A stretch of 64,000 bases of DNA from Deltaproteobacteria bacterium HGW-Deltaproteobacteria-19 (GTDB lineage: Bacteria > Desulfobacterota > Syntrophia > Syntrophales > PHBD01). The position numbers and the translations under genes are program-made. Below, piece after piece: positions 1 through 58,788 of this stretch (position 1 is its first letter; every line of letters starts with the position of its first letter). The notes beneath the pieces were generated by a model. The model ran no database searches, was not told where the DNA came from, and worked only from the letters and a program-made list of their open reading frames with translations. The stretch spans positions 6,524 to 70,523 of the forward strand of contig PHBD01000013.1 of assembly GCA_002841865.1 (NCBI GenBank), in the 5' to 3' direction.

Positions 1-189
1 CGCAAGCTGATTGAGAATCAGCGAAACGCCCTCGGCTGCCGATGCGTCTAAGGTCAAGTCACCCTGCTGTTGCCCCCGATCATGATAGACCAGAGTCGCC
101 ATTGCTCGCAGTTTCCAAACGGCATCCAGCAGATTCGCGGCGCTGTCCTGCATGGCTTTTTTTTCTGATGAAACGGCTACCTTGCCCAT
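1..189 (-). CDS. hypothetical protein, N-terminal 63 codons (runs off window edge)
   Basis: Hand-read: ATG at 189..187 on the minus strand, with AGGAGG (cctcct at 195-200 on plus) upstream. Translation starts MGKVAVSSEKKAMQDSAANLLDAVWKL... and the frame stays open to position 1. Confidence 0.35.
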   Translation of the reverse strand, partial: MGKVAVSSEKKAMQDSAANLLDAVWKLRAMATLVYHDRGQQQGDLTLDASAAEGVSLILNQLA

Positions 190-214
190 AGTTACCTCCT
201 TTGAAATGAAAAAC

Positions 215-279
215 CCCCGAAGATCTCTCCCGGGATAGGGCATCCCGCCCGGGCGTCACCGCGCCGGGGATCTTCGGGG
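215..279. other. nested GC-rich hairpin in a divergent intergenic region
   Basis: Perfect 11-bp stem: ccccgaagatc (215-225) pairs with gatcttcgggg (269-279). Inner cccggg (229-234) can pair with cccggg (248-253). A GGGATAGGGCATCCC box lies in the loop. Confidence 0.5.
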
Positions 280-399
280 ATTGTTATTGTATACTAGCCC
301 ACCCTATCTTGGAGATATTTTAGATCCCTATATCCCCTTGTATGGGATAATGTCAAGCAATCATGTTGCCCCTTCCGCCGGGATAGGGTATAAGGCATC

Positions 400-573
400 A
401 TGCCAACAGAAAAACCGAAAGTATTAATTACCCTGGAAGACGATCTTTTGCAGCGGATTGAGGATTTCCGCTATGGGAACCGCATTCCTTCACGGGCAGA
501 GGCCGTTCGCAAGCTCATAGAAGAAGGTCTGAAAAATATCGAAACATCAAAGCCACAACCGAAAAAGAAATAG
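400..573 (+). CDS. ribbon-helix-helix (CopG/Arc-like) DNA-binding protein, 57 aa
   Basis: Below the ORF-track size cutoff, so hand-translated: MPTEKPKVLITLEDDLLQRIEDFRYGNRIPSRAEAVRKLIEEGLKNIETSKPQPKKK. It shows the short beta strand plus two helices typical of RHH regulators and antitoxins. Confidence 0.55.
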   Translation: MPTEKPKVLITLEDDLLQRIEDFRYGNRIPSRAEAVRKLIEEGLKNIETSKPQPKKK

Positions 574-616
574 CTTTTGTCAGGCGTAACAGCCCCAATA
601 TTTGCGGAGGGACACC

Positions 617-904
617 ATGCATACCGTCAGGTTGTTGGTTGGTTCCGTGCTGTTTACAATTGGCATAGCTTTCTGGGTTTGGTTTCTTCGTAATCTTTTC
701 CGCCGTCAAATCAATAGAGCGCTCCTCTTTCAAGAGTACAATAAGGCCATACAGGTTATCTGCAACACTGCGTGGATCGCTTTGGGTCTCTGGATATATC
801 CTATCCCGGTGACGGTCCCGCTCGTCTCACTAATTGCCGGGTGGGGCTTGGATGGTGGATGTCTCGATAAGCTCCGGGGAGAATTAGTAAATGAACCAAT
901 GTAG
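617..904 (+). CDS. small integral membrane protein, no recognisable family
   Basis: ORF track gives 602..904. The ATG at 617 follows GGAGGG by 7 nt. Three hydrophobic helices. The gene is AT-rich relative to its neighbours. Confidence 0.5.
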   Translation: MHTVRLLVGSVLFTIGIAFWVWFLRNLFRRQINRALLFQEYNKAIQVICNTAWIALGLWIYPIPVTVPLVSLIAGWGLDGGCLDKLRGELVNEPM

Positions 905-1352
905 GAAATATAGCAAAGCAGAGGTTGCTGTTATCTGGATTGCCGTTGTTCTCATGATCCTATCTCTTTTATACCCGCCTTATGGCTATTCAAGGTTCAC
1001 GATTTCTCATTTCAAGAAAAAAGAAGGTGTAATAATTGTTAAGAAAGGAAGCATAAAACTTGATTCGCCTTCGTCATATCAGGCACCTTCGTTAGACGAT
1101 ATTCCAGATAGACATTATTCTGTTCCATGGACATATGTAAGACATGATTTCATTCTATCTGCTCCACTCAACCATGATCGTATTCTCTATGAGAAATACA
1201 GGAATTTGGAAACAGATAAATATGTCATGTTAGCTCAACCAGATGATTATAGAATCGCATGGAACATTGTCTTCATCCAGATATTCATAATCGGCCTTTT
1301 GGCCTTTGGCTCAGTATTCACTTTGAGAAGGCTCCAACGTGCGCCGCCGTGA
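891..1352 (+). CDS. membrane-anchored protein (N- and C-terminal TM helices), no recognisable family
   Basis: 153-aa ORF that overlaps the previous ORF by 14 nt. TM helices VAVIWIAVVLMILSLLY and IVFIQIFIIGLLAFGSVF flank a soluble core. AT-rich. Confidence 0.5.
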   Translation: MNQCRKYSKAEVAVIWIAVVLMILSLLYPPYGYSRFTISHFKKKEGVIIVKKGSIKLDSPSSYQAPSLDDIPDRHYSVPWTYVRHDFILSAPLNHDRILYEKYRNLETDKYVMLAQPDDYRIAWNIVFIQIFIIGLLAFGSVFTLRRLQRAPP

Positions 1353-1486
1353 CCTTGCCCTCCGGGGCGGTCTCCACGGCCTTCTGCCATACTTTCTTCT
1401 TGTTTTCGAGTTCATGGCTTGTGCAAGCGGCGATTTGAGGGATTAAGAATCTACAATATTGCGAATCGGTCCACAGGAGGCGAAAA

Positions 1487-1849
1487 ATGAAAGCTCTTTG
1501 CGCTGTCCTTTCGGTCCTCATATTCACGTTTTTTCTCGGCTGTGCTTCTACCTCAGTAAAGTACGAAGCTGCCCCCACTCCCGCTTCCACGTACATCACG
1601 CCTTCCAAGGGCATCGAAACCTGCGTTGAATGGGAGGTCGAAAAGTGCCCGCCGCGACAAGTTGCTAAAGAATCCGTTCAACCCGCACCCCGCACCGAAC
1701 ACGCCGCCAACGCCGCCTTGGTCGAAGCTCCCGACGTGCCGCCCGACAAGTACCGCGAACCCACAAAGGAGGAACGGGATGCGTATAAATTCAGTTGGGA
1801 CGACTTCTGGAAAACCATGGTCGATCTGATCCCCCCGTACATCCCCTAG
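1487..1849 (+). CDS. lipoprotein, function unknown
   Basis: Signal peptide with lipobox (LIFTFFLGC followed by AST). GGAGG lies 6 nt upstream of the ATG. Confidence 0.55.
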   Translation: MKALCAVLSVLIFTFFLGCASTSVKYEAAPTPASTYITPSKGIETCVEWEVEKCPPRQVAKESVQPAPRTEHAANAALVEAPDVPPDKYREPTKEERDAYKFSWDDFWKTMVDLIPPYIP

Positions 1850-1935
1850 TAGAACAGCGTGGCGTTCAGAACGCCGTTGTTCCCGTTCGTCGCGTTGATG
1901 AACTTCAGCTTGTCGGAGAATGGCTTCAGAAGGCG

Positions 1936-3003
1936 TTAGATCATCCCCGCGCTTTTTTTGAGGCGACCGATGTTCCCGCCGCCCATGGCAGAGGCCATTT
2001 CAGACAGGTACTTGAGCATGGCGGAACCGGAATTTGTCGTCGTGGCTGCGGAAGTCGTAGCGCTGCTCGTCATGGCGTCTGCGATAGAGGTAGGTTCAGC
2101 CGCCGCCGCTTCGGTTGTCGCCGTGGTCCCGGTATTGGAAATGATGTTCTGCGAATCCGTGCCGAACAGCTGGGAAAGGATGTTGTTGAGTCCTATTTTT
2201 GTTCCGGTGCGTGCCAGATCCCCGGCAAAACCCGACAGGATATTGCCCTGTGGTGTGCTCGAAAGCATCCCTTCCGTGGGCATTCCGGTAGAACTCCATC
2301 CCTGATCGAGTGCGCCGCCAACATCGGCAGCACCGGAGAAAAAGTCGCTTGCCAGACCCCCGGCGTAGGATGCCGCCCCGCCGATTATCGCGCTACTAAG
2401 CCCAGACTTTGCAACATCACCTATGCTGCCGCCCTTTCCCGCGGTGTCGCCCGCCTTTTTGAGGCCGGTTAGAGCTGCTCCAAGAAGAGGACCGCCTACA
2501 TATGATCCGAAAACGCCGGGGATAATGTCACCGAGGACATTCACCGAGTTTCGCACAAGGTCGTGGCCCCAATCGCCGGTATTGCCCATCGTGTTTCGGT
2601 AGGCGAGATTCAGGGCTAAATCCTTGTTCCATTCCGTAGGGCTCCTGAACGGGTTAAATGCGGCATTGACAAAGGTTCCGCCCTCTGTGTCGGTGTCCCA
2701 TGTTCCGGGGCTCTTGAGGCTCGACAGAAATTCTCCGAGAAGATTCCCCTGGTCGGTCCCCCTGGTGCTTAGAACGTAGTCCCGGTAGGCGTCGTTACTG
2801 ACATAGCCGTTCTGCGCGATTCCCCGGAGGTCCGAGATAATGGACGAATAGTCCGTAGTGTCGGCGGTCGCGGGGGTCGGTGTTTCCGTAATGGTCGTGG
2901 GAGCTGCACCTGTGGCTCCGGCACCTTGGGGACCTCCGCCGAGAACATCCCAATCCGGATTAGGAAGACTGCTCATCATGCTTGAGAGAATAGAACCGTT
3001 CAT
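1936..3003 (-). CDS. Gly/Ala/Ser/Thr-rich protein with glycine-zipper segments, function unknown
   Basis: 355-aa ORF with GGAGGAG upstream. It starts 21 nt after the preceding gene's stop. GxxxG-type runs are present (GSYVGGPLLGAALTG, IIGGAASYAGGLASDFFSGAADVGG). The termini are T/A-rich and low-complexity. No signal peptide. Confidence 0.6.
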   Translation of the reverse strand: MNGSILSSMMSSLPNPDWDVLGGGPQGAGATGAAPTTITETPTPATADTTDYSSIISDLRGIAQNGYVSNDAYRDYVLSTRGTDQGNLLGEFLSSLKSPGTWDTDTEGGTFVNAAFNPFRSPTEWNKDLALNLAYRNTMGNTGDWGHDLVRNSVNVLGDIIPGVFGSYVGGPLLGAALTGLKKAGDTAGKGGSIGDVAKSGLSSAIIGGAASYAGGLASDFFSGAADVGGALDQGWSSTGMPTEGMLSSTPQGNILSGFAGDLARTGTKIGLNNILSQLFGTDSQNIISNTGTTATTEAAAAEPTSIADAMTSSATTSAATTTNSGSAMLKYLSEMASAMGGGNIGRLKKSAGMI

Positions 3004-3023
3004 TATTTACTCCTCCGTACAGA

Positions 3024-3365
3024 CTATGAAGTGACAATAGACGGGCGTTCCCCCATCCCCGGTAGGCATCGTTGAAAATAGCCGTCAATCTGTCGGCTCC
3101 CGTGGGGATTTGCAGGACTAATTGAGACCATCCATTCCCGGTCTTTGCACCCGGTTCCTACCCGGTTCGGATTCTTGCCCATGCGGAACGGATAGAGGAC
3201 ACAGGCAGGCTTGATGCAGGCCCTCACGAAATCTGCCTTTCCGCCCTGGCAGGCAAGACAGAATTGGCGGATTAGCCGGACGGACGGACGACCCTTTCCA
3301 AGCCGGTGGGGATGAAACCCACACGGTAGGAAACCTTCCCACTTGCCGTCTCGTCGCCGTCGCAT
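3024..3365 (-). CDS. small Cys4 zinc-ribbon protein of mobile-element backbones
   Basis: The ORF-track start at 3494 is a TTG. I prefer the ATG at 3365, which has GAGGG 8 nt upstream. The motif FCLACQGG..VRAC..CVLYPFRMGKNP resembles the small C4 proteins I recall from phage and island backbones. Confidence 0.5.
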   Translation of the reverse strand: MRRRRDGKWEGFLPCGFHPHRLGKGRPSVRLIRQFCLACQGGKADFVRACIKPACVLYPFRMGKNPNRVGTGCKDREWMVSISPANPHGSRQIDGYFQRCLPGMGERPSIVTS

Positions 3366-3480
3366 CCGGCTACCCTCGCGTTCTGTCCGCCGCAACAATG
3401 GACACAGTAAGTCCTGATCGCTTGCCCTGGTGTCATCGCTTAATCTCCTTCCCTGTTGTATCGTGCGCGCACATGGGTGC

Positions 3481-3660
3481 GGCGAAATCCTCAATGGGAC
3501 GCCAACGACAGAAGCACTGAAAGCGGCAGGATACTCGGATAGTTATGCAAAAGCTCATCCGGGCGAAATCCTGAATAATCCTGAAATTCCTGCGGGGCAC
3601 TCCCTCTTCCTGCATCGCGGGCGCGGGCGCGCGTACGTTTGCGAATCCTTGCCAATCCTT
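3481..3660. repeat. cluster of AATCCT-core repeats in a gene-free tract
   Basis: ggcgaaatcctcaat (3481-3495) and ggcgaaatcctgaat (3562-3576) lie 81 nt apart. A tandem aatcctgaat/aatcctgaaa/ttcctg runs over 3567-3592. gaatcctt and caatcctt occur at 3644-3660. Confidence 0.5.
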
Positions 3661-3839
3661 CAATCTCCGGCTTTTCCCCGGTCCTTCCGCTTCAAGGTGA
3701 CGGCCTCCGGGATCGTGGTATCCTTCGGAAAGTAGATCATCCCGACAATCCCGCCGTCCGCTTCTAGGGTGTAGCGGTGAAAGCGTTTGCTGTCCTGTTC
3801 GTATTTGAACGTCCCTTTTGCTTCGTTTTCTTCTGTCAT
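3660..3839 (-). CDS. hypothetical small protein, 59 aa
   Basis: Below the ORF-track cutoff, so hand-read. GGGAGG lies 9 nt upstream of the ATG at 3839. Translation: MTEENEAKGTFKYEQDSKRFHRYTLEADGGIVGMIYFPKDTTIPEAVTLKRKDRGKAGD. Confidence 0.4.
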   Translation of the reverse strand: MTEENEAKGTFKYEQDSKRFHRYTLEADGGIVGMIYFPKDTTIPEAVTLKRKDRGKAGD

Positions 3840-3951
3840 TTTGAATACCTCCCTTTGATGTGTATGCTCTTGTTTTTATAGGTTGCTGTTGCTCATTGCG
3901 TTGTGTGTGGGTTCGTTCTTATGCCGGTCTAAATCATCTTTCATGGGTTCG

Positions 3952-4227
3952 TTACTTTGCGAAGATCTTCCGCGTGAGCCAATTCAACGAAGCCCTCCTT
4001 TTGCCTTCGTCGGTTTTCGGCCCGGTGCTGAGCCCCCCGTGATACTTGCACCTGCCGTTCTCATACAGGCGCTTACAAATGCAGGCGGTTCCGTTCCTGG
4101 TCATGGCTCCACAAGTCATACCTCGACAATCCTCTGGGAAGGGTCTCCGCCGATCCCGGCACCATTGCCGCCACAGCTTTCTCATTTCGGGTGTGCTCAT
4201 CTCGTTTCCCGCCTTCATTCTGTCCAT
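3952..4227 (-). CDS. HGGxSTG-motif protein (mobile-element associated)
   Basis: Cys-rich 91-aa ORF containing CKYHGGLSTGPKTDEGK. It overlaps the end of the PrimPol gene by 13 nt, which suggests translational coupling. Confidence 0.65.
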   Translation of the reverse strand: MDRMKAGNEMSTPEMRKLWRQWCRDRRRPFPEDCRGMTCGAMTRNGTACICKRLYENGRCKYHGGLSTGPKTDEGKRRASLNWLTRKIFAK

Positions 4228-5834
4228 TCGCTGGTGGCTTCAAACTTCGACCCACCAAAGAGTTTATAGGTCCGATGGAGCCCACGCGGGTTCCTGCCTG
4301 TTCGCCATGCCTTCGCATCGGTGATCTTGATCCGGTTGACCTTCTGGTCCGCCAGGTAATCAAGGGACAGATAAAGTCGGGCTTTTTCTTTTGAGAAGTC
4401 GCCGCCCCGTCCATCGTCCTTCCCCTCTGCTTTCTGCAAAGCAATGATGCAGATTCCATCTTTCATCTTTTTATGAATCTCCTGAATCATCTTGGCGACC
4501 TTCCAGAATTCATCATGGATTTCCAGAAAGTCGATGATGAAGATCTTTCGTTCTGGTGTGATAAGATCCGCGAAGTTACCGGCTCGGTGATAGGGGCGGA
4601 ATTTCCAGAATGACAGAGGTGTTTTTTCGAACAGTTCAAGGCGCTTTCGGAATTCGGTGTCTCCCATTTCCGAATTGAGATAGACAATATCGTGCCGGTG
4701 TTGATTCATCCGGACGACGTTCAACAGAAAGGCGGTCTTACCCGCTGATTTGCTCCCGGCAACAATGACGATGTTCCCGGGATAAAGTGAGCAAAGCTCC
4801 TCGATCTCCAACGGCCAGTTGACCGGGAATTCATCCGTGGGGGCAGAAAGGAAATTTACGGGATTCAGGTCTGTTTCTATCCGGCGATAGCATCCGCGCC
4901 TGTTCCCATGCTTCTCCAAGATCGGCTCGGGGCCTTCACAAAGTCGAAGCAGGGCCATGTTCGCCGCCCTGATCTCCTCTTTTGTGGTTAGTTGTAGCTC
5001 TTTGTGGTTAGTTGTGGTTTCGAAGTAGCCAGTTGTGGTTTCGACCCACTCCCTGACCTCGGCGGCGATGTTCCTCTCCCTCCGCTCGGCCCTCTTCAGG
5101 GCGCTGTCAATTTTCGCTCGGATTTCGTTTTTCGGGAAAGGCGGATTTGAGTTTATCGCCAATATATCAAGGACTTGTTTAGCAAATGGGATTTCACAGC
5201 CGCCCTTGATTAGACAATTTGCAGCATGGAAAAGGTCGTTGTCCCTGTGTCCTTCGGTGAAGTAGTTGTGGTCACTTGTGGTCTTTGTGGTCTCCTGTGG
5301 TTTCCGTTGACCACACCCCTCTATATTAACTGCTAAAATATTAAATAAAGATACAGACGCCGGCGCCGGGGCGACCTCGTCCAGGGAAAGCCCCTCCTGC
5401 CAGGTGTAGTGCTTGCCTTCTGCGTTGATCGAAGGCGGGGCGATGATGTACCCGCCTTCACCCCGGAAATCGACTCCCGGCATGATATTGGTGCCAACGG
5501 TGATCCCGCTGCCCTTGGGATACTGAAACCACAGATGCCAGCCACGCGGGGTCTTGGCTATGGGCAGGAGCAGAGCATCCGGAAGGAGCTTCTGCACGGA
5601 CTCGTAAGCCTCCCGGGTGTCACAGTCGATAACGAGCACCCCTGAGACTTCCCCCGTGACGATGCCGATCATGGCCCCCGGCCACTTCGTCCACCACGCC
5701 CGGATCTCTTCCACCCTGGCGCATCGCTTCTGGAAGTCTGTCCATGAGATGTAAGACCTCTTATCTCTCCCAACCGGAATTACCGAATAACCCCGCCCTG
5801 CATAGTCCAGGGCCGCCTGTAGGTTACTTCCCAT
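4215..5834 (-). CDS. bifunctional primase-polymerase (PrimPol) / P-loop helicase replication protein
   Basis: N-terminal PrimPol motifs: GYSVIPV, VLVIDCD (DxD), GGYIIAPPS. C-terminal Walker A (AGSKSAGKT) in a RecA/DnaB-like ATPase domain. 539 aa. Confidence 0.85.
   Translation of the reverse strand: MGSNLQAALDYAGRGYSVIPVGRDKRSYISWTDFQKRCARVEEIRAWWTKWPGAMIGIVTGEVSGVLVIDCDTREAYESVQKLLPDALLLPIAKTPRGWHLWFQYPKGSGITVGTNIMPGVDFRGEGGYIIAPPSINAEGKHYTWQEGLSLDEVAPAPASVSLFNILAVNIEGCGQRKPQETTKTTSDHNYFTEGHRDNDLFHAANCLIKGGCEIPFAKQVLDILAINSNPPFPKNEIRAKIDSALKRAERRERNIAAEVREWVETTTGYFETTTNHKELQLTTKEEIRAANMALLRLCEGPEPILEKHGNRRGCYRRIETDLNPVNFLSAPTDEFPVNWPLEIEELCSLYPGNIVIVAGSKSAGKTAFLLNVVRMNQHRHDIVYLNSEMGDTEFRKRLELFEKTPLSFWKFRPYHRAGNFADLITPERKIFIIDFLEIHDEFWKVAKMIQEIHKKMKDGICIIALQKAEGKDDGRGGDFSKEKARLYLSLDYLADQKVNRIKITDAKAWRTGRNPRGLHRTYKLFGGSKFEATSEWTE
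4981..5044. repeat. iteron-like direct repeats inside the PrimPol-helicase gene (cluster A)
   Basis: TTTGTGGTTAGTTGT occurs at 4981-4995 and 5001-5015 (20-bp period). AGTTGTGGTTTCGA occurs at 5010-5023 and 5031-5044 (21-bp period). Confidence 0.6.
5266..5354. repeat. candidate embedded replication origin: four tandem iterons, one inverted copy and an AT-rich tract (cluster B)
   Basis: TTGTGGTC occurs at 5266, 5276 and 5285, and CTGTGGTT at 5295 (9-10 bp period). An inverted GACCACA lies at 5309-5315. The 34-nt tract 5321-5354 has only 6 G/C. Confidence 0.5.
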
Positions 5835-6060
5835 AGGTGACGCCTCCTCCGGCCAGTTCGTGCCGGATTATCTTTTCAACGCGCTCCGCCTTGTCCGGTC
5901 TCTGGTGGCACTTTGAACACAGGCAATAGCGGAAGGCTTTCCCCGCAGATATTCCCCACATCATTGGTTTATCGGGAACGAAGATTCCCACGACACCCGG
6001 CGCTTCCCCGCATAGAAGGCAGGCGTCTGAGGGTAGCCGTTCGATAATTTCCCTGGCCAT
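5824..6060 (-). CDS. small zinc-ribbon protein (CxxC...CxxC), function unknown
   Basis: The ATG at 6060 lies 2 nt after the alpA stop. 78 aa with CLLCGE and CLCSKC. It overlaps the PrimPol start by 11 nt. The ORF-track N-terminal extension (to 6174) overlaps alpA and was rejected. Confidence 0.45.
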   Translation of the reverse strand: MAREIIERLPSDACLLCGEAPGVVGIFVPDKPMMWGISAGKAFRYCLCSKCHQRPDKAERVEKIIRHELAGGGVTYGK

Positions 6061-6062
6061 GC

Positions 6063-6287
6063 TCAATGCTTCCCCTCGATTAACGCCCTGATGTCCGACA
6101 CCCTCCACGCCGTGCACCGTATCGACAGCTTGACGGGCTGCGGATAAATTCCTTTCCGCACTCCCGCCCACCATGTCGAACGCGAGACGGGTATCACGGC
6201 GGGAATCGGTGGATTTGCCTTAGGGTCTCCTACAATCTGAGGGAGCCGGACAAAGCCCGTTTCGGGAAGAGTCATTCTGTTTGCCAC
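6063..6287 (-). CDS. alpA: AlpA-family phage/island transcriptional regulator
   Basis: GFVRLPQIV...VSRSTWWAGVRKGIYPQPVKLSIRCTAWRVSDIRALI matches the AlpA/prophage CP4-57 regulator pattern. Confidence 0.75.
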   Translation of the reverse strand: MANRMTLPETGFVRLPQIVGDPKANPPIPAVIPVSRSTWWAGVRKGIYPQPVKLSIRCTAWRVSDIRALIEGKH

Positions 6288-6290
6288 CTC

Positions 6291-6482
6291 CTAAGCCCGT
6301 TGGTCCCGCGTCGGTGTCGGGCGCTGTCTGCAAAACGCCTCGATGTCTGCCGCGTCATACCGGACAGCCTTCCCACCGATCTTGAAGAAGCGGGGGCCGA
6401 TTTTCCGGTGTCGCCAGTTTGCCAGGGTTCCCGTGGAAAGCCCCGTCCGCTCGGCTACCTCTCTGTCTTTCAGTAAGGTCAT
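6291..6482 (-). CDS. excisionase-family helix-turn-helix protein
   Basis: LLKDREVAERTGLSTGTLANWRHRKIGPRFFKIGGKAVRYDAADIEAF matches the excisionase/MerR-type HTH pattern. AGGAGGG lies 9 nt upstream of the ATG. Confidence 0.75.
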   Translation of the reverse strand: MTLLKDREVAERTGLSTGTLANWRHRKIGPRFFKIGGKAVRYDAADIEAFCRQRPTPTRDQRA

Positions 6483-6516
6483 GATTGTTTACCCTCCTGT
6501 TTTTTGCTTTCCTTAA

Positions 6517-6533
6517 TTGCACCCTCCATGCCA
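6517..6533 (-). promoter_or_regulatory. candidate sigma54 (-24/-12) promoter
   Basis: The minus strand reads TGGCAT-GGAGG-GTGCA, with exact GG-N10-GC spacing. That is 9 of 11 matches to TGGCAC-N5-TTGCA. It lies about 35-50 nt upstream of the ATG at 6482. Confidence 0.45.
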
Positions 6534-6538
6534 TAACG

Positions 6539-6572
6539 AAAAAAGGCGGCCAGCATTACGCTAACCGCCCTT
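6539..6572 (-). terminator. possible intrinsic terminator after the activator gene
   Basis: On the minus strand GGGCGG...CCGCC (with an interrupted inner stem) is followed by TTTTTT (plus-strand A-run 6539-6544). The stem is short, so this is a weak call. Confidence 0.3.
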
Positions 6573-6607
6573 AATTCTTGGTCATTATCTTTGTCTGGTA
6601 TTTCTTT

Positions 6608-7969
6608 CTACACCTTGCTGGAATCCTTCCTCGCAGGGATCATGTCCGTTATAGAGGACATAGTGTCCGCTATACAGAATTTCTTAACTTGCGTATTAAG
6701 CCATGATCTGCTGATGCCTGCCCGACGAGCCGCCTCGGATTGATTCCTACCCGTTGCCCTCAAGAGGTCCTCGTAATACCGCCGATGAAGGTCTTTCAGG
6801 GAGTATGCCGACAAATCCGGCTTCGTGTCCGGGGGCATTTCAGGCAATCGCAGAGCGTTTTTCGGTGAAGTCGCTCCAGCAAAGAGTGAGGCCAAAAGAC
6901 TGAAACCTTCGAAAGCTCGCTCAACCTCCGGAATTGTCCCGTCCGCTTGCTCTTTCGCGTTCTTGAATGGCCGAACAGAAGACTCTTCAATGTCCAGTCC
7001 ATGTCTTTGAAGGAACAACCTTATCTTACCCACATCCCCTTTCAGGGCGTCCCGTAATTCTGTCGGATATTTCTTTAAGCCCTGGCGGATTTCTGTTGAA
7101 AGATAATCGAGTCTTTTCTTTTCTGTTATGTTCTCTAACCATTGCATTGCTGCCCTAACGATGGCATCCGATTCAGGCAAGAAGCTGAGTGATGGGAAGA
7201 TTTTAGTTTTGCGCTTTCTTCTCGAATGGCAAGGCTGAGAGGACACCCCCGCATGCTTCGCTTTACAGATAGATTCGTCTAATAACCCGATCTCGATTTC
7301 CTGACCTACTCGTTCAATCTCCCGGACCCCGCCCGGCCAGGGATGCGCCAAGAGTTCCAGAACCTCCTTGGACGTCAAAGCTTCAAAGAGTGTAGGAAAG
7401 AGCCCACACAGGTAATAGAGGACGTCCCCGCGTCGTTCGTGGATGGCGGGAACCTTGAAATGATAGAAGCGGTCCAGGAAGTCCGGCCGGAAAGCTCTGT
7501 CTGGCTTGTTTGTTGTGCCAAAGAACCAAAGTTGCCCGATATTCAAATTATTCTTTCCGCCAACTCGCTGAAAATTTCCGTCCTCCAACACAGTCAAGAG
7601 TTTTGCCTGTACCCATTTGGGAATATCCCCGATCTCCTCTAATACGAGGAGGCCGTCCTCCGCTTGCTCCAAGAGACCGATTTTTTTCTCTGTAGCCCCC
7701 GTGAAGGCCCCCTTCTCATGCCCGAAGAGTTCCGATTCTATGAGATTAGGCTGTAGGGCCGCGATGTTCCGTTGGATGACCTTTCCCGTAGTGACTTTGG
7801 GATTCACCCCTATAAATTTTTGCACAAAAAGTGTCTTTCCGACACCCCGCGGCCCCCGGATGATGATCGGTTTCCGCAACAGCTTGAAATAAGTGCATAC
7901 GTCCTCGAACTGAGCAAGGGGTTCCCTGAGTCCAGGGGTTATGATCATTCCGTTCTGCTTCTTTACCAT
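6608..7969 (-). CDS. sigma54-interaction-domain AAA+ activator without an N-terminal sensory domain, with a C-terminal Fis-type HTH
   Basis: Walker A GPRGVGKT occurs by residue 40. ESELFGHEKGAFTGA carries an intact GAFTGA. LLVLEEIGD is the Walker B. FRPDFLDRF and WPGGVREIE are also present. The C-terminus has QSEAARRAGISRSWL. About 170 aa in the middle cannot be assigned. Confidence 0.8.
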   Translation of the reverse strand: MVKKQNGMIITPGLREPLAQFEDVCTYFKLLRKPIIIRGPRGVGKTLFVQKFIGVNPKVTTGKVIQRNIAALQPNLIESELFGHEKGAFTGATEKKIGLLEQAEDGLLVLEEIGDIPKWVQAKLLTVLEDGNFQRVGGKNNLNIGQLWFFGTTNKPDRAFRPDFLDRFYHFKVPAIHERRGDVLYYLCGLFPTLFEALTSKEVLELLAHPWPGGVREIERVGQEIEIGLLDESICKAKHAGVSSQPCHSRRKRKTKIFPSLSFLPESDAIVRAAMQWLENITEKKRLDYLSTEIRQGLKKYPTELRDALKGDVGKIRLFLQRHGLDIEESSVRPFKNAKEQADGTIPEVERAFEGFSLLASLFAGATSPKNALRLPEMPPDTKPDLSAYSLKDLHRRYYEDLLRATGRNQSEAARRAGISRSWLNTQVKKFCIADTMSSITDMIPARKDSSKV

Positions 7970-8080
7970 CGCCTCATCCTCTCTTCGGCTCCCGTTTAAT
8001 GACCAGGGGAAACGGGGAGGGATGCCCCCGCTTATCGGCCCGTCGGCCTATCCCCCATAGAAGGTTATATCCCGGTATCG

Positions 8081-8782
8081 CTATAACGCCTTTTTGATTC
8101 CATCATTATTGAGAAGTTCGCTCAGTCGCTTTGTTATAGCTCCATTAATCAACACATCACGTTTTTCTCTGCTTTCTCCTTTCCCTCCTAGATCATCTTC
8201 CCCTTTTATTTCAGTGGTTGCTACAGCCTGAACTCCTGCATTATTGTAAACAGTCAGTGAGACGGCATAAAAAAAACCAAGATTATAGAATTCTTCGGTC
8301 ATCCATTCGTTTATAACCACGATTATTATTTTATCATATTTTTGTAACCCGTATTTATTCAAAGAGTCGGTAGTAATTTTCTCTTTGGGTTCTATTCTTA
8401 CAGTCTCAACGCTAAAACCAGCTTTCTTCATCGCATCTGAGACTATACCAGATACGGTGTCTGCTAAACTCCTTCCGTCATCCGTAATTAAATCAATAGG
8501 TGGACTTAGAGTCGGACCCCATAGAACAACCCTTCGAATGTGTCCGGTATATTGCTGTTTAGTTTTTTCAGACACAACATAGGGACGTTGATCATGGACG
8601 ACAAGAAGAACGGAGGCTGTTCCAGAATAATTAAGAATTGGGAGGACAGATTTGTAGCTAGAAACAGGTTGATACACATAATCAGGGGCATACGGATCAC
8701 TTGTGGCAGATTTGGGGTATGGGGTTGACCAACACGCGGAAAGGAGAATCGTCAAGACGAAAAGTGCAAAGACCTTCTTCAT
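8081..8782 (-). CDS. lipoprotein, function unknown (AT-rich cargo)
   Basis: Signal peptide plus lipobox (LTILLSAC). 233 aa. Visibly AT-rich compared with int and the activator gene. No family recognised. Confidence 0.6.
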   Translation of the reverse strand: MKKVFALFVLTILLSACWSTPYPKSATSDPYAPDYVYQPVSSYKSVLPILNYSGTASVLLVVHDQRPYVVSEKTKQQYTGHIRRVVLWGPTLSPPIDLITDDGRSLADTVSGIVSDAMKKAGFSVETVRIEPKEKITTDSLNKYGLQKYDKIIIVVINEWMTEEFYNLGFFYAVSLTVYNNAGVQAVATTEIKGEDDLGGKGESREKRDVLINGAITKRLSELLNNDGIKKAL

Positions 8783-8850
8783 AACTTAACCCCCTTGGAT
8801 GTTTGAAGTAAATTACCTCCTAAAACAGCGTTCAACGCACTGAGCAAACC

Positions 8851-10083
8851 TTATCGGACCTTCCGCACCATCGGCAGGACCTTTGCCCCCGACTTTAGAC
8901 CATCTAAATAATCCGCCCAAAGCTGCATCATCTTCCGGCGCTCGGCAAGGTGCGCCGTCCGGTTGTAGGCCCGCCCATTCGGGTCTCTGACGGCATGGCC
9001 TAGCTGGTGTTCGATGAAATCCGGCCTCACTTGCAGCACTTCGTCAAGGATTGTTCGCGCCATGGCCCGGAAGCCGTGCGGAGTCATTGTTTCCTTGTCG
9101 TAATCCATCCGCCGCAGCGCTGACAGCAAGGTGTTGTTGCTCATGGGTCGGGAAAGGGATCTTCCAGAGGGGAACACATATCGGCTTGAACCGGTCAGTT
9201 CTTTCAGTTCCGTTAGTATCTCCATGGCCTGATGGCACAAGGGGACCATGTGCGGTTGCTTCATTTTCATCTTCCCTGCCGGGATGTTCCAGACCGCCTC
9301 GTCAAAGTCTATCTCTGCCCACTCAGCATGCCTCAGTTCACCAGGACGCACGAAAAAGAGCGGGGCAAGCCTCAGGGCACACTTGACAACGAAGTGGCCG
9401 TGATAGCCGTCTATGGCTCTAAGGAGCGGAGCGACTTCTTTCGGGTCGGTGATCGCGGCGTGGTGTTTCTCGCCAGGTCGCGGTAAGGCCCCCTTGAGAT
9501 CGGCGGAGGGGTCGCGTTCCGCCCTTCCTGTAGCGACTGCATACCGGAATACCTGACCGGCAATAGCTCTTATCCTGTGGGCCGATTCCAAGGCTCCCCT
9601 TGATTCGACACGGCGTAGGACCGCAAGGAGTTCGGGGGCCTTTATTTCGTTGATCGGATGCGCACCCATCCAGGGGAAGAGGTCACGTTCCATGCGGCCC
9701 ATGACGGTGACTGAATGCGACGCCGTCCACGTGGGATTGAATTTCGCGTGCCATTCACGGGCAATGACCTCGAAAGTCTCTGTTGTTTCGTTGTTAGCCT
9801 GCTTCTGTGCTTTGCGAACTGCTCCGGGATCAATGCCGTTGGCTACCTGCTTTCGCGCCATATCCCGTCTTAGCCTAGCATCGGCAAGGGTGATCTCCGG
9901 GTATGATCCAAAGGCGAGAAGTTTTTCCTTTCCGCCGAAACGGTACTTAAAGCGCCAGAGTTTCCCGCCCTCCGGAGTGACGAGAAGGAAAAGCCCCTGC
10001 CCGTCAAACAGCGTCAACCGCTTTCCTTGAGGCTTCGCTTTTTGCACCGCCATGTCCGTCAGGGGAACTATCCGCTTTGGCAT
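8851..10083 (-). CDS. int: tyrosine recombinase / integrase, P4-like (DUF4102 N-terminus)
   Basis: The ATG at 10083 follows GGGAGG; the ORF-track start at 10149 runs through upstream repeats. The N-terminus is LTDMAVQKAKPQGKRLTLFDGQGLFLLVTPEGGKLWRFKYRF. The catalytic region includes HGFRAMARTIL...HQLGHAVR...AYNRTAHL. Confidence 0.9.
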   Translation of the reverse strand: MPKRIVPLTDMAVQKAKPQGKRLTLFDGQGLFLLVTPEGGKLWRFKYRFGGKEKLLAFGSYPEITLADARLRRDMARKQVANGIDPGAVRKAQKQANNETTETFEVIAREWHAKFNPTWTASHSVTVMGRMERDLFPWMGAHPINEIKAPELLAVLRRVESRGALESAHRIRAIAGQVFRYAVATGRAERDPSADLKGALPRPGEKHHAAITDPKEVAPLLRAIDGYHGHFVVKCALRLAPLFFVRPGELRHAEWAEIDFDEAVWNIPAGKMKMKQPHMVPLCHQAMEILTELKELTGSSRYVFPSGRSLSRPMSNNTLLSALRRMDYDKETMTPHGFRAMARTILDEVLQVRPDFIEHQLGHAVRDPNGRAYNRTAHLAERRKMMQLWADYLDGLKSGAKVLPMVRKVR

Positions 10084-10094
10084 GGGAACCTCCC

Positions 10095-10151
10095 TTTTGG
10101 GTGTACGCGATTTGTTTTGGGTGTACGCAAGGCCCCCGCGTATACCCAAAA
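10095..10151. repeat. three copies of a 14-mer upstream of int (two direct, one inverted)
   Basis: TTTTGGGTGTACGC occurs at 10095-10108 and 10115-10128. GCGTATACCCAAAA at 10138-10151 is the reverse complement of TTTTGGGTATACGC. Confidence 0.6.
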
Positions 10152-10279
10152 TCGGTGGCTTTTGATGGATTGCATAGCACGGGAATGGACAACAAGCAAG
10201 AAAAAACCAGCTATTTCTAACGGGTTTTGGCCTGCATTGGTCAGCGTTGGATTATGTCGTGATGGACGACGGGTCCATC

Positions 10280-10483
10280 CTACCGCCTGCCGAAGTAGAC
10301 CAGGAGCAGCCCCGTGACGATGGCCCCCAGGCCGAGGATCCGGAGTGTCCGGTCGGGGATTTCCAGGAGCTTTACCAGGTATTGCTTGATCTGTGCCGGG
10401 AAGGCGAAATAAGGCAGGCCCTCGACGATGAAGACCAGCCCGAGGACGCAGAGGAAGAATTCAATCGCGTTTGTCTGTTCCAT
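10280..10483 (-). CDS. DUF2065-family small membrane protein
   Basis: From MEQTNAIEFFLCVLGLVFIVEGLPYFAFP...LRILGLGAIVTGLLLVYFG. I chose the ATG at 10483 instead of the ORF-track start at 10561. The hairpin gatggac/gtccatc at 10260-10279 follows the stop. Confidence 0.6.
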   Translation of the reverse strand: MEQTNAIEFFLCVLGLVFIVEGLPYFAFPAQIKQYLVKLLEIPDRTLRILGLGAIVTGLLLVYFGRR

Positions 10484-10582
10484 ATTATTTTTTATGCCTC
10501 GATGCGGGATAGGCCCGGTGGATCCGACGGCGGTCAGCTGTTGTTCCCGCAAGATAATCACGTTATTTCGCTACGGACATCC

Positions 10583-11011
10583 TTACGGAAGAAATCCCAC
10601 CTTTTGCAGGACCCGCAGGGTGTTGCGCGCCACGGGAAGGGCATCCAGATCCTTCGGAGACAGCCAGCGGGCATCTGCGGCGTCGTCATCGGCCCGGACG
10701 TCCCCCGAGACGTATTCCGCCGTCACGTCCACGATGACGTAGTGGAAGCGGATCCGCCCCGCCTGGTCGCGCTCGAAGAAGTCGAAGGTGTGAACCGGAT
10801 CGCCGGCCCGGATCACGATTCCCGTTTCCTCCAGAATCTCCCGTTCCGCCCCTTCCTGAATTGTTTCACCCAGTTCCAGGGATCCTCCGGGAATGGCCCA
10901 GAGGCCGCGGCTGGGTTCGATGCCCCGCTGGACGAGGAGAACCCTGCCCTTCCGGATGACGATGGCCCCCACGCCGACCCGGGGCCGATCGGGGTACTCC
11001 CGCCCGCTCAC
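10583..11011 (-). CDS. NUDIX hydrolase
   Basis: Nudix box GGSLELGETIQEGAEREILEETG. Confidence 0.85.
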   Translation of the reverse strand: MSGREYPDRPRVGVGAIVIRKGRVLLVQRGIEPSRGLWAIPGGSLELGETIQEGAEREILEETGIVIRAGDPVHTFDFFERDQAGRIRFHYVIVDVTAEYVSGDVRADDDAADARWLSPKDLDALPVARNTLRVLQKVGFLP

Positions 11012-11781
11012 GGCGACGCCTCCGCGGAAAATGTGAACCGGGCCGTCATCCGGGGTTCGGGAGAGCCCTGGAAGGAACGTTCGATGAACGTGATCCCGCC
11101 GCGGCGGTTCATCATTAGAATGGTCGAGGAACGAGTGCCGTACGTCGGGCTTGCGATGAACAGCGGCGACAGGATCCGTTCCCAGTCGAGGCCGATCCCC
11201 GTCTCGGGAAGATCCCCGTCGGGGACCCGCTCCATGTCCGTGAGGGGCCGGAAGAGGGCTTCCGGGTCCGGTTCGGGATTCTGCTCCAGGAGGAGGCGGA
11301 AGGCCTCCCGGCCCCGGCGGATCTTTGGCCAGGGCGTGTCCAGGAGGGCGTTGGACAGTCCGTGGACACCCGGGGATACGGGACCCGACGGCCCCCTGCT
11401 GGATAGATAGAAAAGGGAATCCTGATCACCCGCGAAGAGATTGAAAGGGTTGTAGTCCCGCGCCCGGGGGGCAAGTCTTTCCATGTACTCCGCCGGCCGT
11501 TCCGATCCGGCCAGGAAGTCCCGAACGAGCCATCCCCGGGAGGGTGTCCCGGACCGGATGGCCGCCGGATCCCGGAAGTTCGTCAGGGCCGCCCAGCGTC
11601 CCTGACGGGTCACGCCGAGCCAGGTCCCTCCGTCCTGGAGGTCCCGCCCGCCCAGGATGTCGGGCCGGTCTGACCAGAAATCCGCCGCCGCTGTCGGCCG
11701 GTCGTAGAATTCGTCCCGGTTGGCTGCCAGGATCAGCGGGTATTCAGGATGGGCCTGCCAGGCCAGGAGAATCAGGCACAT
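11008..11781 (-). CDS. NRDE-family (TANGO2-like) protein
   Basis: MCLILLAWQAHPEYPLILAANRDEFYDRP, starting at the ATG at 11781. Confidence 0.75.
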   Translation of the reverse strand: MCLILLAWQAHPEYPLILAANRDEFYDRPTAAADFWSDRPDILGGRDLQDGGTWLGVTRQGRWAALTNFRDPAAIRSGTPSRGWLVRDFLAGSERPAEYMERLAPRARDYNPFNLFAGDQDSLFYLSSRGPSGPVSPGVHGLSNALLDTPWPKIRRGREAFRLLLEQNPEPDPEALFRPLTDMERVPDGDLPETGIGLDWERILSPLFIASPTYGTRSSTILMMNRRGGITFIERSFQGSPEPRMTARFTFSAEASP

Positions 11782-44964: not shown

Positions 44965-45534
44965 ATGAAAAAAATCAGCTTGTCGGCATCGGTCGCCCTG
45001 ATCCTGCTGACCGCCGTTATCGCAGCGGCAGCTGCAACGGTGAATCCGCTCATCCGGGACATTCTTGTCACCACGAAGGGAGAACAGCTTCTCCTTTACG
45101 GCAAGGTGTCCGACGGTTTCACCCCGGACATGAACGCGGCGGTTATGGCCGGTTTCCCCGTCCAGTTCACCTTTTACGCCGGTATCTACCAGGAGCGTTC
45201 CTTCTGGTTCGACCGCCAGCTTTCGGAAATCAAGATAACCCGGACGCTCAAGTTCGACAACCTGAAGAAGACCTTCCAGGTTTCCTCCGACAGCGGACCT
45301 GATCCTGCGGTGTTTCAGACCCTCAGTGAGGCAAAGGTCGCCATGTCGGACCTGAACGGGTTCCCGGTTGCTTCGGTGAAGGCGCTTTCAAAGGACACGG
45401 AATACTACCTGAAAGTGATGGCCAAGCTGGATCGGGTGCAGTTGCCCCTCCGGCTGGAATATGTCTTTTTGTTCGTCTCCCTGTGGGATCTTGAGACGCC
45501 GTGGCATACATACAGGTTCATCTATCGCGAATGA
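44965..45534 (+). CDS. DUF4390-domain protein
   Basis: ATG at 44965. Signal/anchor sequence. It sits in the position typical for the DUF4390 partner, directly upstream of an NtrY-like kinase, with an ATGA overlap. Confidence 0.6.
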   Translation: MKKISLSASVALILLTAVIAAAAATVNPLIRDILVTTKGEQLLLYGKVSDGFTPDMNAAVMAGFPVQFTFYAGIYQERSFWFDRQLSEIKITRTLKFDNLKKTFQVSSDSGPDPAVFQTLSEAKVAMSDLNGFPVASVKALSKDTEYYLKVMAKLDRVQLPLRLEYVFLFVSLWDLETPWHTYRFIYRE

Positions 45535-47801
45535 AACCGAAACGGAAGAACCCGGCAATCGACGAGAAGGAAGCCCGCAAAAGGCGGAGAGAGCGCCTCA
45601 TCATCCTCCTGACGGTGGGCCTGATCCTCCTGCTGGCCTACGTGGAAAGCAAAATCTCCTGGCGGGGCCAAGTTCTGCCCATCTCGGACAACGTCCTGAT
45701 CTTCGGCTTCATCAACATCAACATCATCCTGATTATTCTGCTCATTTTCCTGATTGTCCGCAACGTGGTGAAGCTCGTGTTCGAGCGCAGGCGCGGCGTC
45801 ATCGGTTCGAAATGGCGGTCCAAGCTGGTGGCGGCCTTTGTGAGCCTGTCCCTGATTCCCACGGCTCTCCTGTTTTTCGTGTCCATTAACTTTCTCTCCT
45901 ACAGCATCGAGAACTGGTTCAATGTGCGCCTCGGGGACGCCCTGAACACGACCCTGGAGGTTGCCCAGTATTATTACCAGCAGGGGACCGAATACGCCCG
46001 GTACCATGCCCGCGCCATCAGCGGGGAGATCACGGACAATCGTCTCTACGAGTCGGACAAGCATCCTTACCTGAAGGCTCTCATGGAGCGGCGCCAGACC
46101 AGCCTGAACCTCGGTGTCCTGGAAGTGCATTTCGACAGCCAGCGGGAGGGGATGATCGTTCGCAGCACATCCGTGGAAACGATTCCTCCGTCCGTTTTGA
46201 CGGCCTCACAACTCGAGAAGGTGTACGGGGGACAGGAAGTGGCGGAAATCGAGTCCACGACCGCCGCCGGGGAGATCATCCGGGGAATCGCGCCGGTTTA
46301 CACATCGCTGGTTCCCAGGGAGGTGATCGGGTACGTAACGGTCAGTTACGTCATGCCCAAGACCATGGTGGACAAAATGGCGGTCATCTCCGCTGCCTCG
46401 GAACAGTACCGCCAGCTGAAAATCCTGAAGAATCCGGTCAAGTTTACCTATGTGGTCACCCTGTCTGTGGTGACGCTGCTGATCCTTTTTTTCGCCACCT
46501 GGTTCGGCCTTTTTCTGGCAAAAGGCATAAACGAACCTCTTGAAGACCTGGCGGAAGCGACCCGGAAAATCGCCGCCGGTGACCTGGATCACCAGATCAA
46601 CCTCACCGGGGATGACGAGATCGGGGTCCTCGGACAGTCTTTCAACGCCATGACCCGGGAACTCAAGAAGTCGAACCAGCGCCTGGAAGAGGCGAACGAA
46701 GACCTGGAAGAGCGCCGGAAATACATGGAAACGGTCCTGGGAAACGTCTCGGCGGGCGTCATCGCTGTCGACCGGGACGGCATTGTAACCGCTGTCAACC
46801 GGGCGGCGGAGCGGATGCTCCACATCCAGACGGGACAGATCATCTGGAAATCGTACCTGGAGATCCTGACGGCAGAGCAACTGGTACTGGCCCGGGAACT
46901 GCTGCAGGAAATGAGAGAGAGCCCGGAGGGATCCCTCCAGAAACAGATGGAGATCGTCGTGGATGGCCGGGCCATCACGATCCTCATGACCGCCACGGAC
47001 ATCCGGGACGATGAGGGGCGAGACATGGGGGTCGTGGTGGTATTCGAGGACCTGACGGAGATGCAGAAGGCTGAACGGGCCGCGGCCTGGCGGGAGGTGG
47101 CGCGGCGCATGGCCCACGAGATCAAAAACCCCTTGACGCCGATTCAGCTTTCTGCCCAGAGACTTCAGCGGAAATACGGGGACCGCCTCGGGGAGGACGT
47201 TAAAGTCTTCCAGGAATGTACGAATACCATCATCGACCAGGTGGACGTCCTGAAGAACCTGGTGAACGCATTTTCCCAATATGCACGGATGCCCGTGACG
47301 AACCCGTCGCCCAACGACCTCAATGCGGTCATCGCCGACCCGGTGGTCCTGTTCCAGGACGCCCACAAGGACCTCAGGTTCGACCTCGATCTCGATCCGG
47401 AGATTCCCCGGCTCCTTATCGACGCCGAGCAGATCAAACGGGTCATGGTCAACCTCCTGGACAACGCCGTAGCGGCGGTCCAGAACACCACCGGGTGCAT
47501 TGCCGTCCGGTCTGCCTATGACCGTCAGAACTCCCGGGTGACAGTGGCCGTGGCGGACAATGGCTGCGGGGTGCCGCCGCGCTACAAGATGAAAATCTTT
47601 GAACCCTATTTCTCGACGAAAGTAACCGGGACCGGCCTCGGCCTCGCCATCGTCAGTTCCATCATCTCCGACCACAAGGGTGAGGTGCAGGTGGCGGACA
47701 ACGCACCCTGCGGAACCATCGTGTCTTTCAGGCTTCCCGTGACGGAAGGGGACGGGAGCGCGGCAATGAAGCAACCTTCCCTGGAATCGGAACATGCATA
47801 A
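45531..47801 (+). CDS. NtrY-like sensor histidine kinase (TM, HAMP, PAS, HisKA, HATPase)
   Basis: H-box HEIKNPLTPI, N-box NLLDNA, G-box GTGLGLAIV. Confidence 0.8.
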   Translation: MKPKRKNPAIDEKEARKRRRERLIILLTVGLILLLAYVESKISWRGQVLPISDNVLIFGFININIILIILLIFLIVRNVVKLVFERRRGVIGSKWRSKLVAAFVSLSLIPTALLFFVSINFLSYSIENWFNVRLGDALNTTLEVAQYYYQQGTEYARYHARAISGEITDNRLYESDKHPYLKALMERRQTSLNLGVLEVHFDSQREGMIVRSTSVETIPPSVLTASQLEKVYGGQEVAEIESTTAAGEIIRGIAPVYTSLVPREVIGYVTVSYVMPKTMVDKMAVISAASEQYRQLKILKNPVKFTYVVTLSVVTLLILFFATWFGLFLAKGINEPLEDLAEATRKIAAGDLDHQINLTGDDEIGVLGQSFNAMTRELKKSNQRLEEANEDLEERRKYMETVLGNVSAGVIAVDRDGIVTAVNRAAERMLHIQTGQIIWKSYLEILTAEQLVLARELLQEMRESPEGSLQKQMEIVVDGRAITILMTATDIRDDEGRDMGVVVVFEDLTEMQKAERAAAWREVARRMAHEIKNPLTPIQLSAQRLQRKYGDRLGEDVKVFQECTNTIIDQVDVLKNLVNAFSQYARMPVTNPSPNDLNAVIADPVVLFQDAHKDLRFDLDLDPEIPRLLIDAEQIKRVMVNLLDNAVAAVQNTTGCIAVRSAYDRQNSRVTVAVADNGCGVPPRYKMKIFEPYFSTKVTGTGLGLAIVSSIISDHKGEVQVADNAPCGTIVSFRLPVTEGDGSAAMKQPSLESEHA

Positions 47802-58611: not shown

Positions 58612-58630
58612 TCTCAAATGCTCCCCGGGT

Positions 58631-58677
58631 GGATAGTTAGTATCCAAGCGGATACCACAGGCGGTTATTCTGTATCC
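58631..58677. promoter_or_regulatory. palindromic candidate activator-binding sites (UAS)
   Basis: GGATA-GTTAG-TATCC lies at 58631-58645. GGATAC-N16-GTATCC lies at 58650-58677. Both are about 100-145 bp upstream of the -24 element. Confidence 0.45.
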
Positions 58678-58772
58678 ACTTTTTTCTCGTTCGTGCGCCG
58701 GGCAGGGGAATTCAGGACCATTGTTTTTGAAAAGCATAATGGAATCGCGTAATTGTGTTTCGCCTGCCGGGT

Positions 58773-58788
58773 TGGCACAGCCGTTGCT
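58773..58788 (+). promoter_or_regulatory. sigma54 promoter of the Spy/ZraP-like gene
   Basis: TGGCAC-AGCCG-TTGCT is a perfect match to TGGCAC-N5-TTGC. It lies 83 nt upstream of the ATG at 58871, divergent from the kinase/regulator operon. Confidence 0.75.

Follow-up and report, generated by a model that had tools for sequence, protein, structure and literature searches.

A predicted sigma-54 cassette with its own activator at the head of the excision/replication operon of a recurrent integrative element

Integrative elements control their mobility genes by several described routes. Described satellites employ Stl repressors, AlpA or anti-repressor logic at sigma-70 promoters, while some larger elements carry their own activators: SetCD of SXT and BisDC of ICEclc are FlhDC-like, sigma-70-type activators, encoded by the element, of excision, replication or transfer operons. 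A third group, exemplified by XylR and DmpR, consists of bacterial enhancer-binding proteins (bEBPs) located on mobile DNA, which act on nearby sigma-54 promoters through an upstream activating sequence (UAS) and DNA looping. The sigma-54 holoenzyme binds its promoter but needs help to open it and, to our knowledge, sigma-54 promoters are the sole bacterial promoters that stay closed until an ATPase opens them. Here, we describe a locus in a 64,000-nucleotide stretch of DNA (hereafter, the window; contig PHBD01000013.1 of assembly GCA_002841865.1, positions 6,524 to 70,523 of the forward strand) from Deltaproteobacteria bacterium HGW-Deltaproteobacteria-19, in which an integrase-bearing element occupies the left end. 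The element carries a sigma-54 activator gene directly upstream of a predicted -24/-12 promoter that precedes a small excisionase-type gene and a replication gene, and we assign a probability of about 0.82 to the reading, drawn from sequence comparison, that this cassette is the element's own sigma-54 activator controlling the promoter of the excision/replication operon.

The locus combines traits of all these systems and differs from each of them. It shares with phage-inducible chromosomal islands (PICIs), P4-like elements and capsid-forming PICIs (cfPICIs) the tyrosine integrase, the small Xis/AlpA-type helix-turn-helix (HTH) genes and the PrimPol-helicase core, but a bEBP and a -24/-12 promoter head the operon here. 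No packaging or capsid gene was found at positions 1-10200 of the window, where the element continues past the left edge, and the label 'satellite' is unproven for this element, whose core resembles PICI or P4-type islands. As with SetCD and BisDC, the element supplies its own activator of mobility operons, but those proteins belong to an unrelated family and do not open promoters in an ATP-dependent manner. XylR and DmpR, in turn, possess an N-terminal effector domain and control catabolic cargo, not the mobility genes of the DNA that carries them. The earlier note on this DNA, made from the sequence alone, knew of no sigma-54-gated satellite, and the literature searches agree: no sigma-54-headed excision/replication module with a resident activator was found for an integrative element, satellite or prophage in a literature that covered, among others, a survey of sigma-54 regulons across phyla from 2025 and a study of the sigma-54 regulome of Desulfovibrio vulgaris. 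All parts are of known kinds, and it is their combination that appears new and recurs widely.

The activator is, judged by its domain content, a bEBP without an N-terminal input domain. The PF00158 match covers residues 31-162 (E 1e-34), with the Walker A motif GPRGVGKT at residues 39-46 and an intact GAFTGA at residues 88-93 (G[AS][FY]T[GDT]A across the family), and the Pfam scan found no REC, GAF or PAS domain, in agreement with the earlier description of a sigma-54-type AAA+ domain lying almost at the N-terminus. PspF is the best match of solved structure by sequence. Specifically, residues 26-222 of the AAA+ domain align to PspF 23-233 (E 2e-30) with an equal N-terminal offset, and the alignment spans Walker A, GAFTGA, Walker B, the arginine fingers (FRPDFLDR) and sensor II (WPGGVRE). 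An AlphaFold model of the protein, with a predicted local distance difference test score (pLDDT) of 83, matches the ATPase domains of NtrC1, FlrC, FleQ and PspF, with a template modelling (TM) score of up to 0.76 on the target. At the other end, about 85 C-terminal profile positions match full-length Fis (12-98; E 1e-7), as expected from the Fis-type HTH proposed earlier. The intervening 170 or so residues, previously described as unassignable, gave no Pfam, PHROG or PDB-sequence match, the PDB profile search finding the Fis-like end only; they are predicted to be all-helical, are family-specific and are modelled with modest confidence, a separate AlphaFold2 model of residues 222-453 having a pLDDT of 60 overall and of about 45-58 over the middle part. 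Family-wide, about 120-250 residues separate the AAA+ and DNA-binding domains and contain the conserved motifs LNxYGL and GLxxFxxLF.

The likeness to PspF extends beyond the ATPase to the missing N-terminal regulatory domain, the C-terminal HTH and the adjacent sigma-54 promoter, which the window protein is predicted to serve through upstream sites as PspF does. However, PspF differs from the window protein, which has the helical middle region and a DNA-binding end that matches Fis. Moreover, no PspA-like gene was found in the element and no conserved partner in the family loci, and Trp56 of PspF, the residue contacted by PspA, has no counterpart in the window activator. The genomic setting differs as well, since PspF sits in a stress operon and the window gene lies between an integrase and an excision/replication operon. 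RtcR-type proteins (CARF-AAA+-HTH) gave the only PADLOC match to the activator (E 3e-37); the identification was rejected, as just the AAA+ part matches (profile positions 191-392) and a CARF domain is absent.

By its profile scores, the activator belongs to a distinct family of mobile-element bEBPs. Scores in the first homology search dropped abruptly below a group of about 23 clusters at 141-220 bits to those of ordinary NtrC-type proteins, and all of these top clusters lack an input domain and have in common the N-terminal motif W-I-x-P-P-G-L. A profile built for the family gives 311 bits or more for its members and no more than 212 for generic bEBPs, the gap in between being empty. Each of the 150 best representatives (50% identity; 1.84 billion searched) exceeds 350 bits with an end-to-end match, which in most cases starts no later than about residue 40. 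The family exceeds 150 clusters at 50% identity, and Walker A lies at about residues 36-62 in most of the family loci examined; the missing input domain, noted earlier for one protein, is a trait of the whole family. Most genome-derived members belong to Desulfobacterota (Syntrophaceae, Smithella, Desulfomonile, Desulfohalobiaceae, Desulfococcaceae and Syntrophobacteraceae), and further members occur in Gemmatimonadales, Lentisphaera and one Firmicutes metagenome-assembled genome. An IMG/VR scan with the full-length family alignment returned only generic bEBPs (up to 212 bits) and no family member among the contigs retrieved.

The neighbourhood of the gene was compared in 62 loci, designated here by L numbers and forming 45 lineages at 70% identity, from genome and metagenome scans. 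The same arrangement surrounds every family member whose contig was readable, and the order that recurs across the loci is integrase, bEBP, dyad repeats, often a terminator, a TGGCAY-N5-TTGCW motif, a small HTH_17 gene and variable replication modules. All-against-all clustering of the open reading frames (ORFs) of 39 representative loci found just three common gene families: the bEBP in all 39, a tyrosine integrase in 25, of which 21 lie upstream on the same strand, and an HTH_17 gene downstream on the same strand in 14, at a median of 184 nt past the bEBP stop codon. The same clustering detected no conserved anti-activator or partner gene. Where integrase and bEBP share a strand, the two genes are adjacent in most lineages, and integrases 65-70% identical adjoin family bEBPs on the upstream side in L097, L188, L183 and L226.

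Downstream of the promoter, an HTH_17/Xis or AlpA-type gene comes first across lineages and replication genes follow, which bears out the target operon assigned by the earlier note. In the window, the 63-aa HTH_17 gene is the first of the sigma-54 operon and has homologues at the same position in at least nine loci, while in L097, L101 and L096 it is a homologue of the AlpA-like gene that comes first after the promoter. These two genes, the Cys-rich gene and the PrimPol-helicase gene follow one another closely, with neighbours either overlapping or separated by a few bases. The replication modules vary by lineage, from PrimPol-helicase (the window protein is 45% identical to its equivalent in L005) to DUF3854 with AAA_25 and to a DEAD-box helicase with AAA_24, and the L001-L004 lineage adds a small terminase (Terminase_4) and a major capsid protein (Phage_capsid) on contigs of about 8-11 kb. 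Two loci show peculiarities of their own. In L103 (Solidesulfovibrio sp. DCME, NZ_CP188261; 6611-7660), the activator is truncated to 339 aa, no GAFTGA was found in it and the ORF directly downstream looks like an IS5-type transposase, so that this cassette has apparently been broken by an insertion sequence. L098, a Smithella contig, has at 4246-4929 a second, remoter bEBP-like match, which precedes the family activator by about 1.7 kb and is 34% identical to the AAA+ part of the window activator.

The predicted promoter of the window reads TGGCAT-GGAGG-GTGCA on the minus strand (6533-6518), with an exact GG-N10-GC spacing. It lies 51 nt ahead of the HTH_17/Xis start codon, with AGGAGGG and then the ATG at 6482 following it, and the C at -12 (6519) would place the transcription start at about 6507, 25 nt ahead of the ATG. 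Letters, spacing and placement had all been given by the earlier note and were confirmed on the sequence. The significance of the motif derives from its conservation in related elements, not from this window alone. Of the first 19 loci, 13 have the strict pattern GGCAY-N5-NNGCW in the 260 nt that follow the activator stop codon. Elsewhere in these loci its frequency is 6.4e-5 per base and strand, so that 0.017 occurrences per locus would be expected (binomial P about 2e-19). Motif and activator are conserved together in homologous islands, the comparison that the earlier note had called for. With the metagenome loci included, 19 lineages out of about 41 evaluable have the strict form and 12 more have TGGCAY-N5 with a deviant -12 element; the motif begins its recurrence at a set place, 49-224 nt past the stop codon of the activator gene, and the ribosome-binding site and next start codon follow it after about 35-70 nt. 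Moreover, positions that were not part of the search pattern also fit the consensus TGGCACR-N4-TTGCW in the 19 strict lineages: a T precedes the GG in 17, a T occupies -14 in 15 and a purine follows GGCAY in 18.

Among the deviant lineages, the TTG at -15 to -13 is retained in 8 of 12 (P 6e-12). The sequence in L005, L089, L096, L194, L198, L201, L204 and L215 is TGGCAY-N5-TTG with the C of the -12 element changed to A or T, and the non-canonical forms encountered are TTGAT, TTGTA, TTGAA, TTGAG, TTGTT and TTGTC. These recurrent changes may alter how tightly the promoter is locked. A second sigma-54 promoter within the window's element was considered and rejected, since the sole other strict match (CGGCAC-GTCGG-GAGCT, 1741-1726) is within chance expectation.

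Upstream of the promoter lie the candidate binding sites of the activator. The possible UAS suggested earlier, with repeats at 6643-6655 and at 6664-6676 and a dyad at 6642-6661, is present in the sequence, and the half-site TATARCGGACA occurs three times within 6643-6674, twice in direct orientation at a distance of 21 bp and once inverted. Five matches lie in the window as a whole against 0.35 expected, a number reached by none of 100 shuffles. These sites fall inside the last 20 codons or so of the activator gene and are not intergenic, a point absent from the earlier note; the C-terminal tail of the protein is about 20 aa longer than that of its relatives, and that stretch reads through the sites. 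In nine lineages 118-131 bp separate the GG of the -24 element from the dyad centre upstream of it, wherever the stop codon falls, with distances of 119.5 bp in the window, 120.5 in L092, 120 in L094, 118.5 in L096, 121.5 in L097, 130.5 in L001 and L089, and 128.5 in L005 and L088, and equivalents at this distance exist in most lineages examined. The sites are within the end of the activator ORF in the window and in L096 and just past the stop codon elsewhere; since the distance is constant inside or outside the coding end, the position of the sites follows the promoter and not the gene end. Direct repeats with a period of 20-21 bp occur in six lineages, and the dyad sequences are lineage-specific. 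The tandem dyads are candidates for the UAS recognised by the Fis-like domain of the activator, and the spacer between them and the promoter is AT-rich, at 66% on average.

A further component, not mentioned in the earlier note, is an intrinsic terminator between activator and promoter. The hairpin at 6572-6542 has a stem of 13-14 bp followed by a T-run that stops 6 nt short of TGGCAT (-23 kcal/mol, z -4.05). About 16 of 31 lineages have a GC-rich hairpin with a T-run 3-7 nt upstream of the promoter, and the alignment of 15 of these hairpins shows an 11-pair stem with compensatory changes at 7 pairs. The transcription unit of integrase and activator is predicted to end at this terminator, just ahead of the sigma-54 promoter, which would block read-through into the excision/replication genes. 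Examples are the window hairpin and those of L001, L089, L201, L202 and L226. In 15 lineages the 5' arm has an invariant GTT (GCRGTT), whose partner in the 3' arm can be either A or G, a constraint beyond pairing. This constraint hints that hairpin and TGGCA block could instead be one DNA or RNA element, such as an operator of the HTH_17/Xis protein, a site for recombination or packaging, or an RNA with a structure of its own, and the block does adjoin an xis-type gene. However, the block downstream of the hairpin fits the sigma-54 consensus at positions that were not selected for, about half of the lineages have the promoter without a hairpin, and compensatory changes in the stem are typical of a transcribed terminator. 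Rfam has no credible match for the region, the L20 leader reaching 22 bits against a cut-off of 58.7, and the single-element explanation is the least probable of those considered, at long odds.

Several observations weigh against control of the operon by a resident sigma-54 activator. Scanned on its own, the window contains 9 matches to the -24/-12 consensus with up to two mismatches, compared with 12 expected. Twelve lineages have a non-canonical -12 element with A or T in place of C and are putative cases of the promoter. Chance alone would yield a loose GGYAY about every 300 nt, and the support from these deviant cases therefore comes from their position after the terminator and from the conserved TTG. 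About 10 of the 41 evaluable lineages lack the motif. Several of these (L103, L178, L192 and L200) have frameshifted or truncated bEBP genes, so that 'downstream' is misplaced in them. No convincing site for the integration host factor (IHF) was found in the window, where the best match has two mismatches, and the family-wide comparison is marginal, with a mean best mismatch of 1.55 versus 1.91 in shuffles. The Walker B motif (7618-7635, residues ~107-114) is hhhLEE instead of the usual hhhLDE; most family members have LEE and a few retain LDE. Lastly, rpoN is not within the 64-kb window. The host flank encodes two canonical REC-AAA+-HTH_8 bEBPs, which suggests that the host uses sigma-54: one belongs to an AtoS/AtoC-like pair of histidine kinase and sigma-54 response regulator (45501-49185), and the other is a ZraR-like response regulator (55478-56851) beside an unannotated 694-aa ORF (56848-58932). 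The strict -24/-12 matches at 49374-49359 and 58773-58788 in this flank fall within ORFs.

The chance-level frequency of the motif in this window alone would suit a different explanation, in which the activator regulates cargo, the motif is not its target or is no working promoter, and HTH_17/AlpA control is exerted from a sigma-70 promoter. Element-borne bEBPs that serve cargo are known, as with XylR and DmpR on catabolic plasmids, and comparable islands are, as a rule, described as being under AlpA-type control. On the other hand, bEBP, integrase and HTH_17 are the sole genes common to the 39 loci, replication and cargo genes being variable; promoter and dyad keep their mutual position across lineages; and a consensus scan gave no sigma-70-like site in the interval 6483-6607. 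A role confined to cargo is therefore improbable, and sigma-54 gating of excision and replication by an element-borne activator, as the earlier note had put forward, is supported by the conserved order, promoter and dyads.

Starting from the parts, their order, spacing and conservation, what is known of bEBPs and sigma-54 suggests how binding, looping and opening would proceed at this locus. The integrase gene, together with the inserted lipoprotein gene described below, is probably co-transcribed with the activator gene, and this unit would halt at the terminator. Six bases past the T-run, host sigma-54 polymerase would sit closed at the -24/-12 element. Through its Fis-like domain the activator would bind the tandem sites about 120-145 bp upstream, form an AAA+ ring, loop over the AT-rich spacer and, as other members of the bEBP family do, open the promoter by means of ATP hydrolysis and the GAFTGA motif. 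The resulting transcript would yield the Xis/HTH_17, AlpA-like, Cys-rich and PrimPol-helicase proteins and, because their genes sit on the sigma-54 transcript, excision and replication would remain silent unless the activator is active. In the absence of an N-terminal sensor, its activity would be set by its amount, by the middle region of about 170 aa or by a partner outside the cassette, and a partner encoded elsewhere, for instance by a helper phage, is one option for switching it on.

The first of these routes, in which the cassette is real and the activator constitutively active, with control exerted upstream through the amount of the integrase-bEBP transcript, is a possibility to which we give clearly less than even odds. 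It would account for the lack of both an input domain and a conserved partner gene, and it accords with the adjacency of integrase and bEBP in most lineages where both are on one strand and with the triple GCGTAYACCCAAAA repeat at 10095-10151, just upstream of the integrase start. These repeats (three matches versus 0.18 expected) are candidate integrase arm sites or a candidate operator of the integrase-bEBP transcription unit. Conversely, the preservation of a middle region of about 120-250 aa with its motifs throughout the family would be unexpected for a mere linker, and co-transcription with the integrase would leave excision without a separate control. Somewhat more speculative still is the proposal that the middle region is a sensor that holds the activator off until a helper-phage protein or a stress signal arrives, that these elements form a new satellite-like class in which the absolute need of sigma-54 for an activator serves as a zero-leak, switch-like trigger of excision and of replication, and that the -12 variants tune the lock.

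The element that carries the cassette corresponds to the first ~10.2 kb of the window, where the G+C content is about 52% as compared with about 62% in the remainder, and it extends past the left edge of the window (Table 1). Its genes are on the minus strand from 10149 down to about 1300, with a few plus-strand ORFs at 400-1352. No direct repeat of the kind expected for att sites connects the integrase end (about 10150-10280) with any other part of positions 1-11500, and no tRNA gene was found in the window. The true start of the integrase is likely the ATG at 10083, with GGGAGG in front. The 233-aa lipoprotein between integrase and activator has no Pfam, PHROG or PADLOC match and no homologue by tblastn in the other family loci tested; since a same-strand integrase usually abuts the bEBP elsewhere, with no counterpart of this gene there, it is probably inserted cargo. 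Likewise, the small Cys-rich protein of the operon gave no Pfam or PHROG match. Within the PrimPol-helicase gene, two copies of TTTGTGGTTAGTTGT and two of AGTTGTGGTTTCGA provide four AACCACAA cores on the coding strand, and these iteron-like repeats are a possible replication origin. Towards the left end, oppositely oriented small genes (400-1352 on the plus strand, 1318-1614 on the minus strand) show no significant family match; they encode a 57-aa ribbon-helix-helix antitoxin-like protein, two predicted membrane proteins and a 98-aa lipoprotein-like product. PADLOC found no defence system in the element.

Table 1. Features of the element in the window, from the integrase end towards the left edge
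Feature	Position	Strand	Basis or remarks
Tyrosine integrase, P4-type arm-binding N-terminus	8851..10149	-	Pfam Arm-DNA-bind_3, Phage_int_M, Phage_integrase
Three GCGTAYACCCAAAA copies (two direct 20 bp apart, one inverted)	10095..10151	.	Directly upstream of integrase start
Predicted lipoprotein, 233 aa, MKKVFALFVLTILLSAC..., lipoprotein-type signal ...LLSAC	8081..8782	-	Between integrase and activator
Sigma-54 activator (bEBP), 453 aa	6608..7969	-	PF00158, GAFTGA, Fis-like C-terminus
Candidate UAS	6643..6676	-	Three TATARCGGACA half-sites, overlapping dyads
Intrinsic terminator	6542..6572	-	Hairpin and T-run
Predicted sigma-54 (-24/-12) promoter, TGGCAT-GGAGG-GTGCA	6518..6533	-	Motif and conservation across loci
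HTH_17 protein, excisionase/regulator type, 63 aa	6291..6482	-	Pfam HTH_17, E 4e-8; phrog_66 'excisionase and transcriptional regulator'
AlpA-like second small gene	6063..6287	-	Pfam Phage_AlpA, 20.0 bits, just below the cut-off of 21
Small Cys-rich (CxxC...CxxC), Zn-ribbon-like protein	5824..6174	-	Start likely ATG near 6060
PrimPol and DnaB-like helicase replication protein	4215..5834	-	Pfam Prim-Pol, E 2e-34; weak DnaB_C; PHROG primase families
Iteron-like repeats, four AACCACAA cores, 20-21 bp period	4981..5044	.	Inside the PrimPol-helicase gene

A promoter that stays closed until an ATPase acts suits an integrated element, which has to be silent and then switched on. The cassette is not a one-off and is coupled to interchangeable replication modules; its set of activator, UAS and promoter is compact and portable, and it offers a sequence signature for small mobile elements in poorly studied anaerobes.

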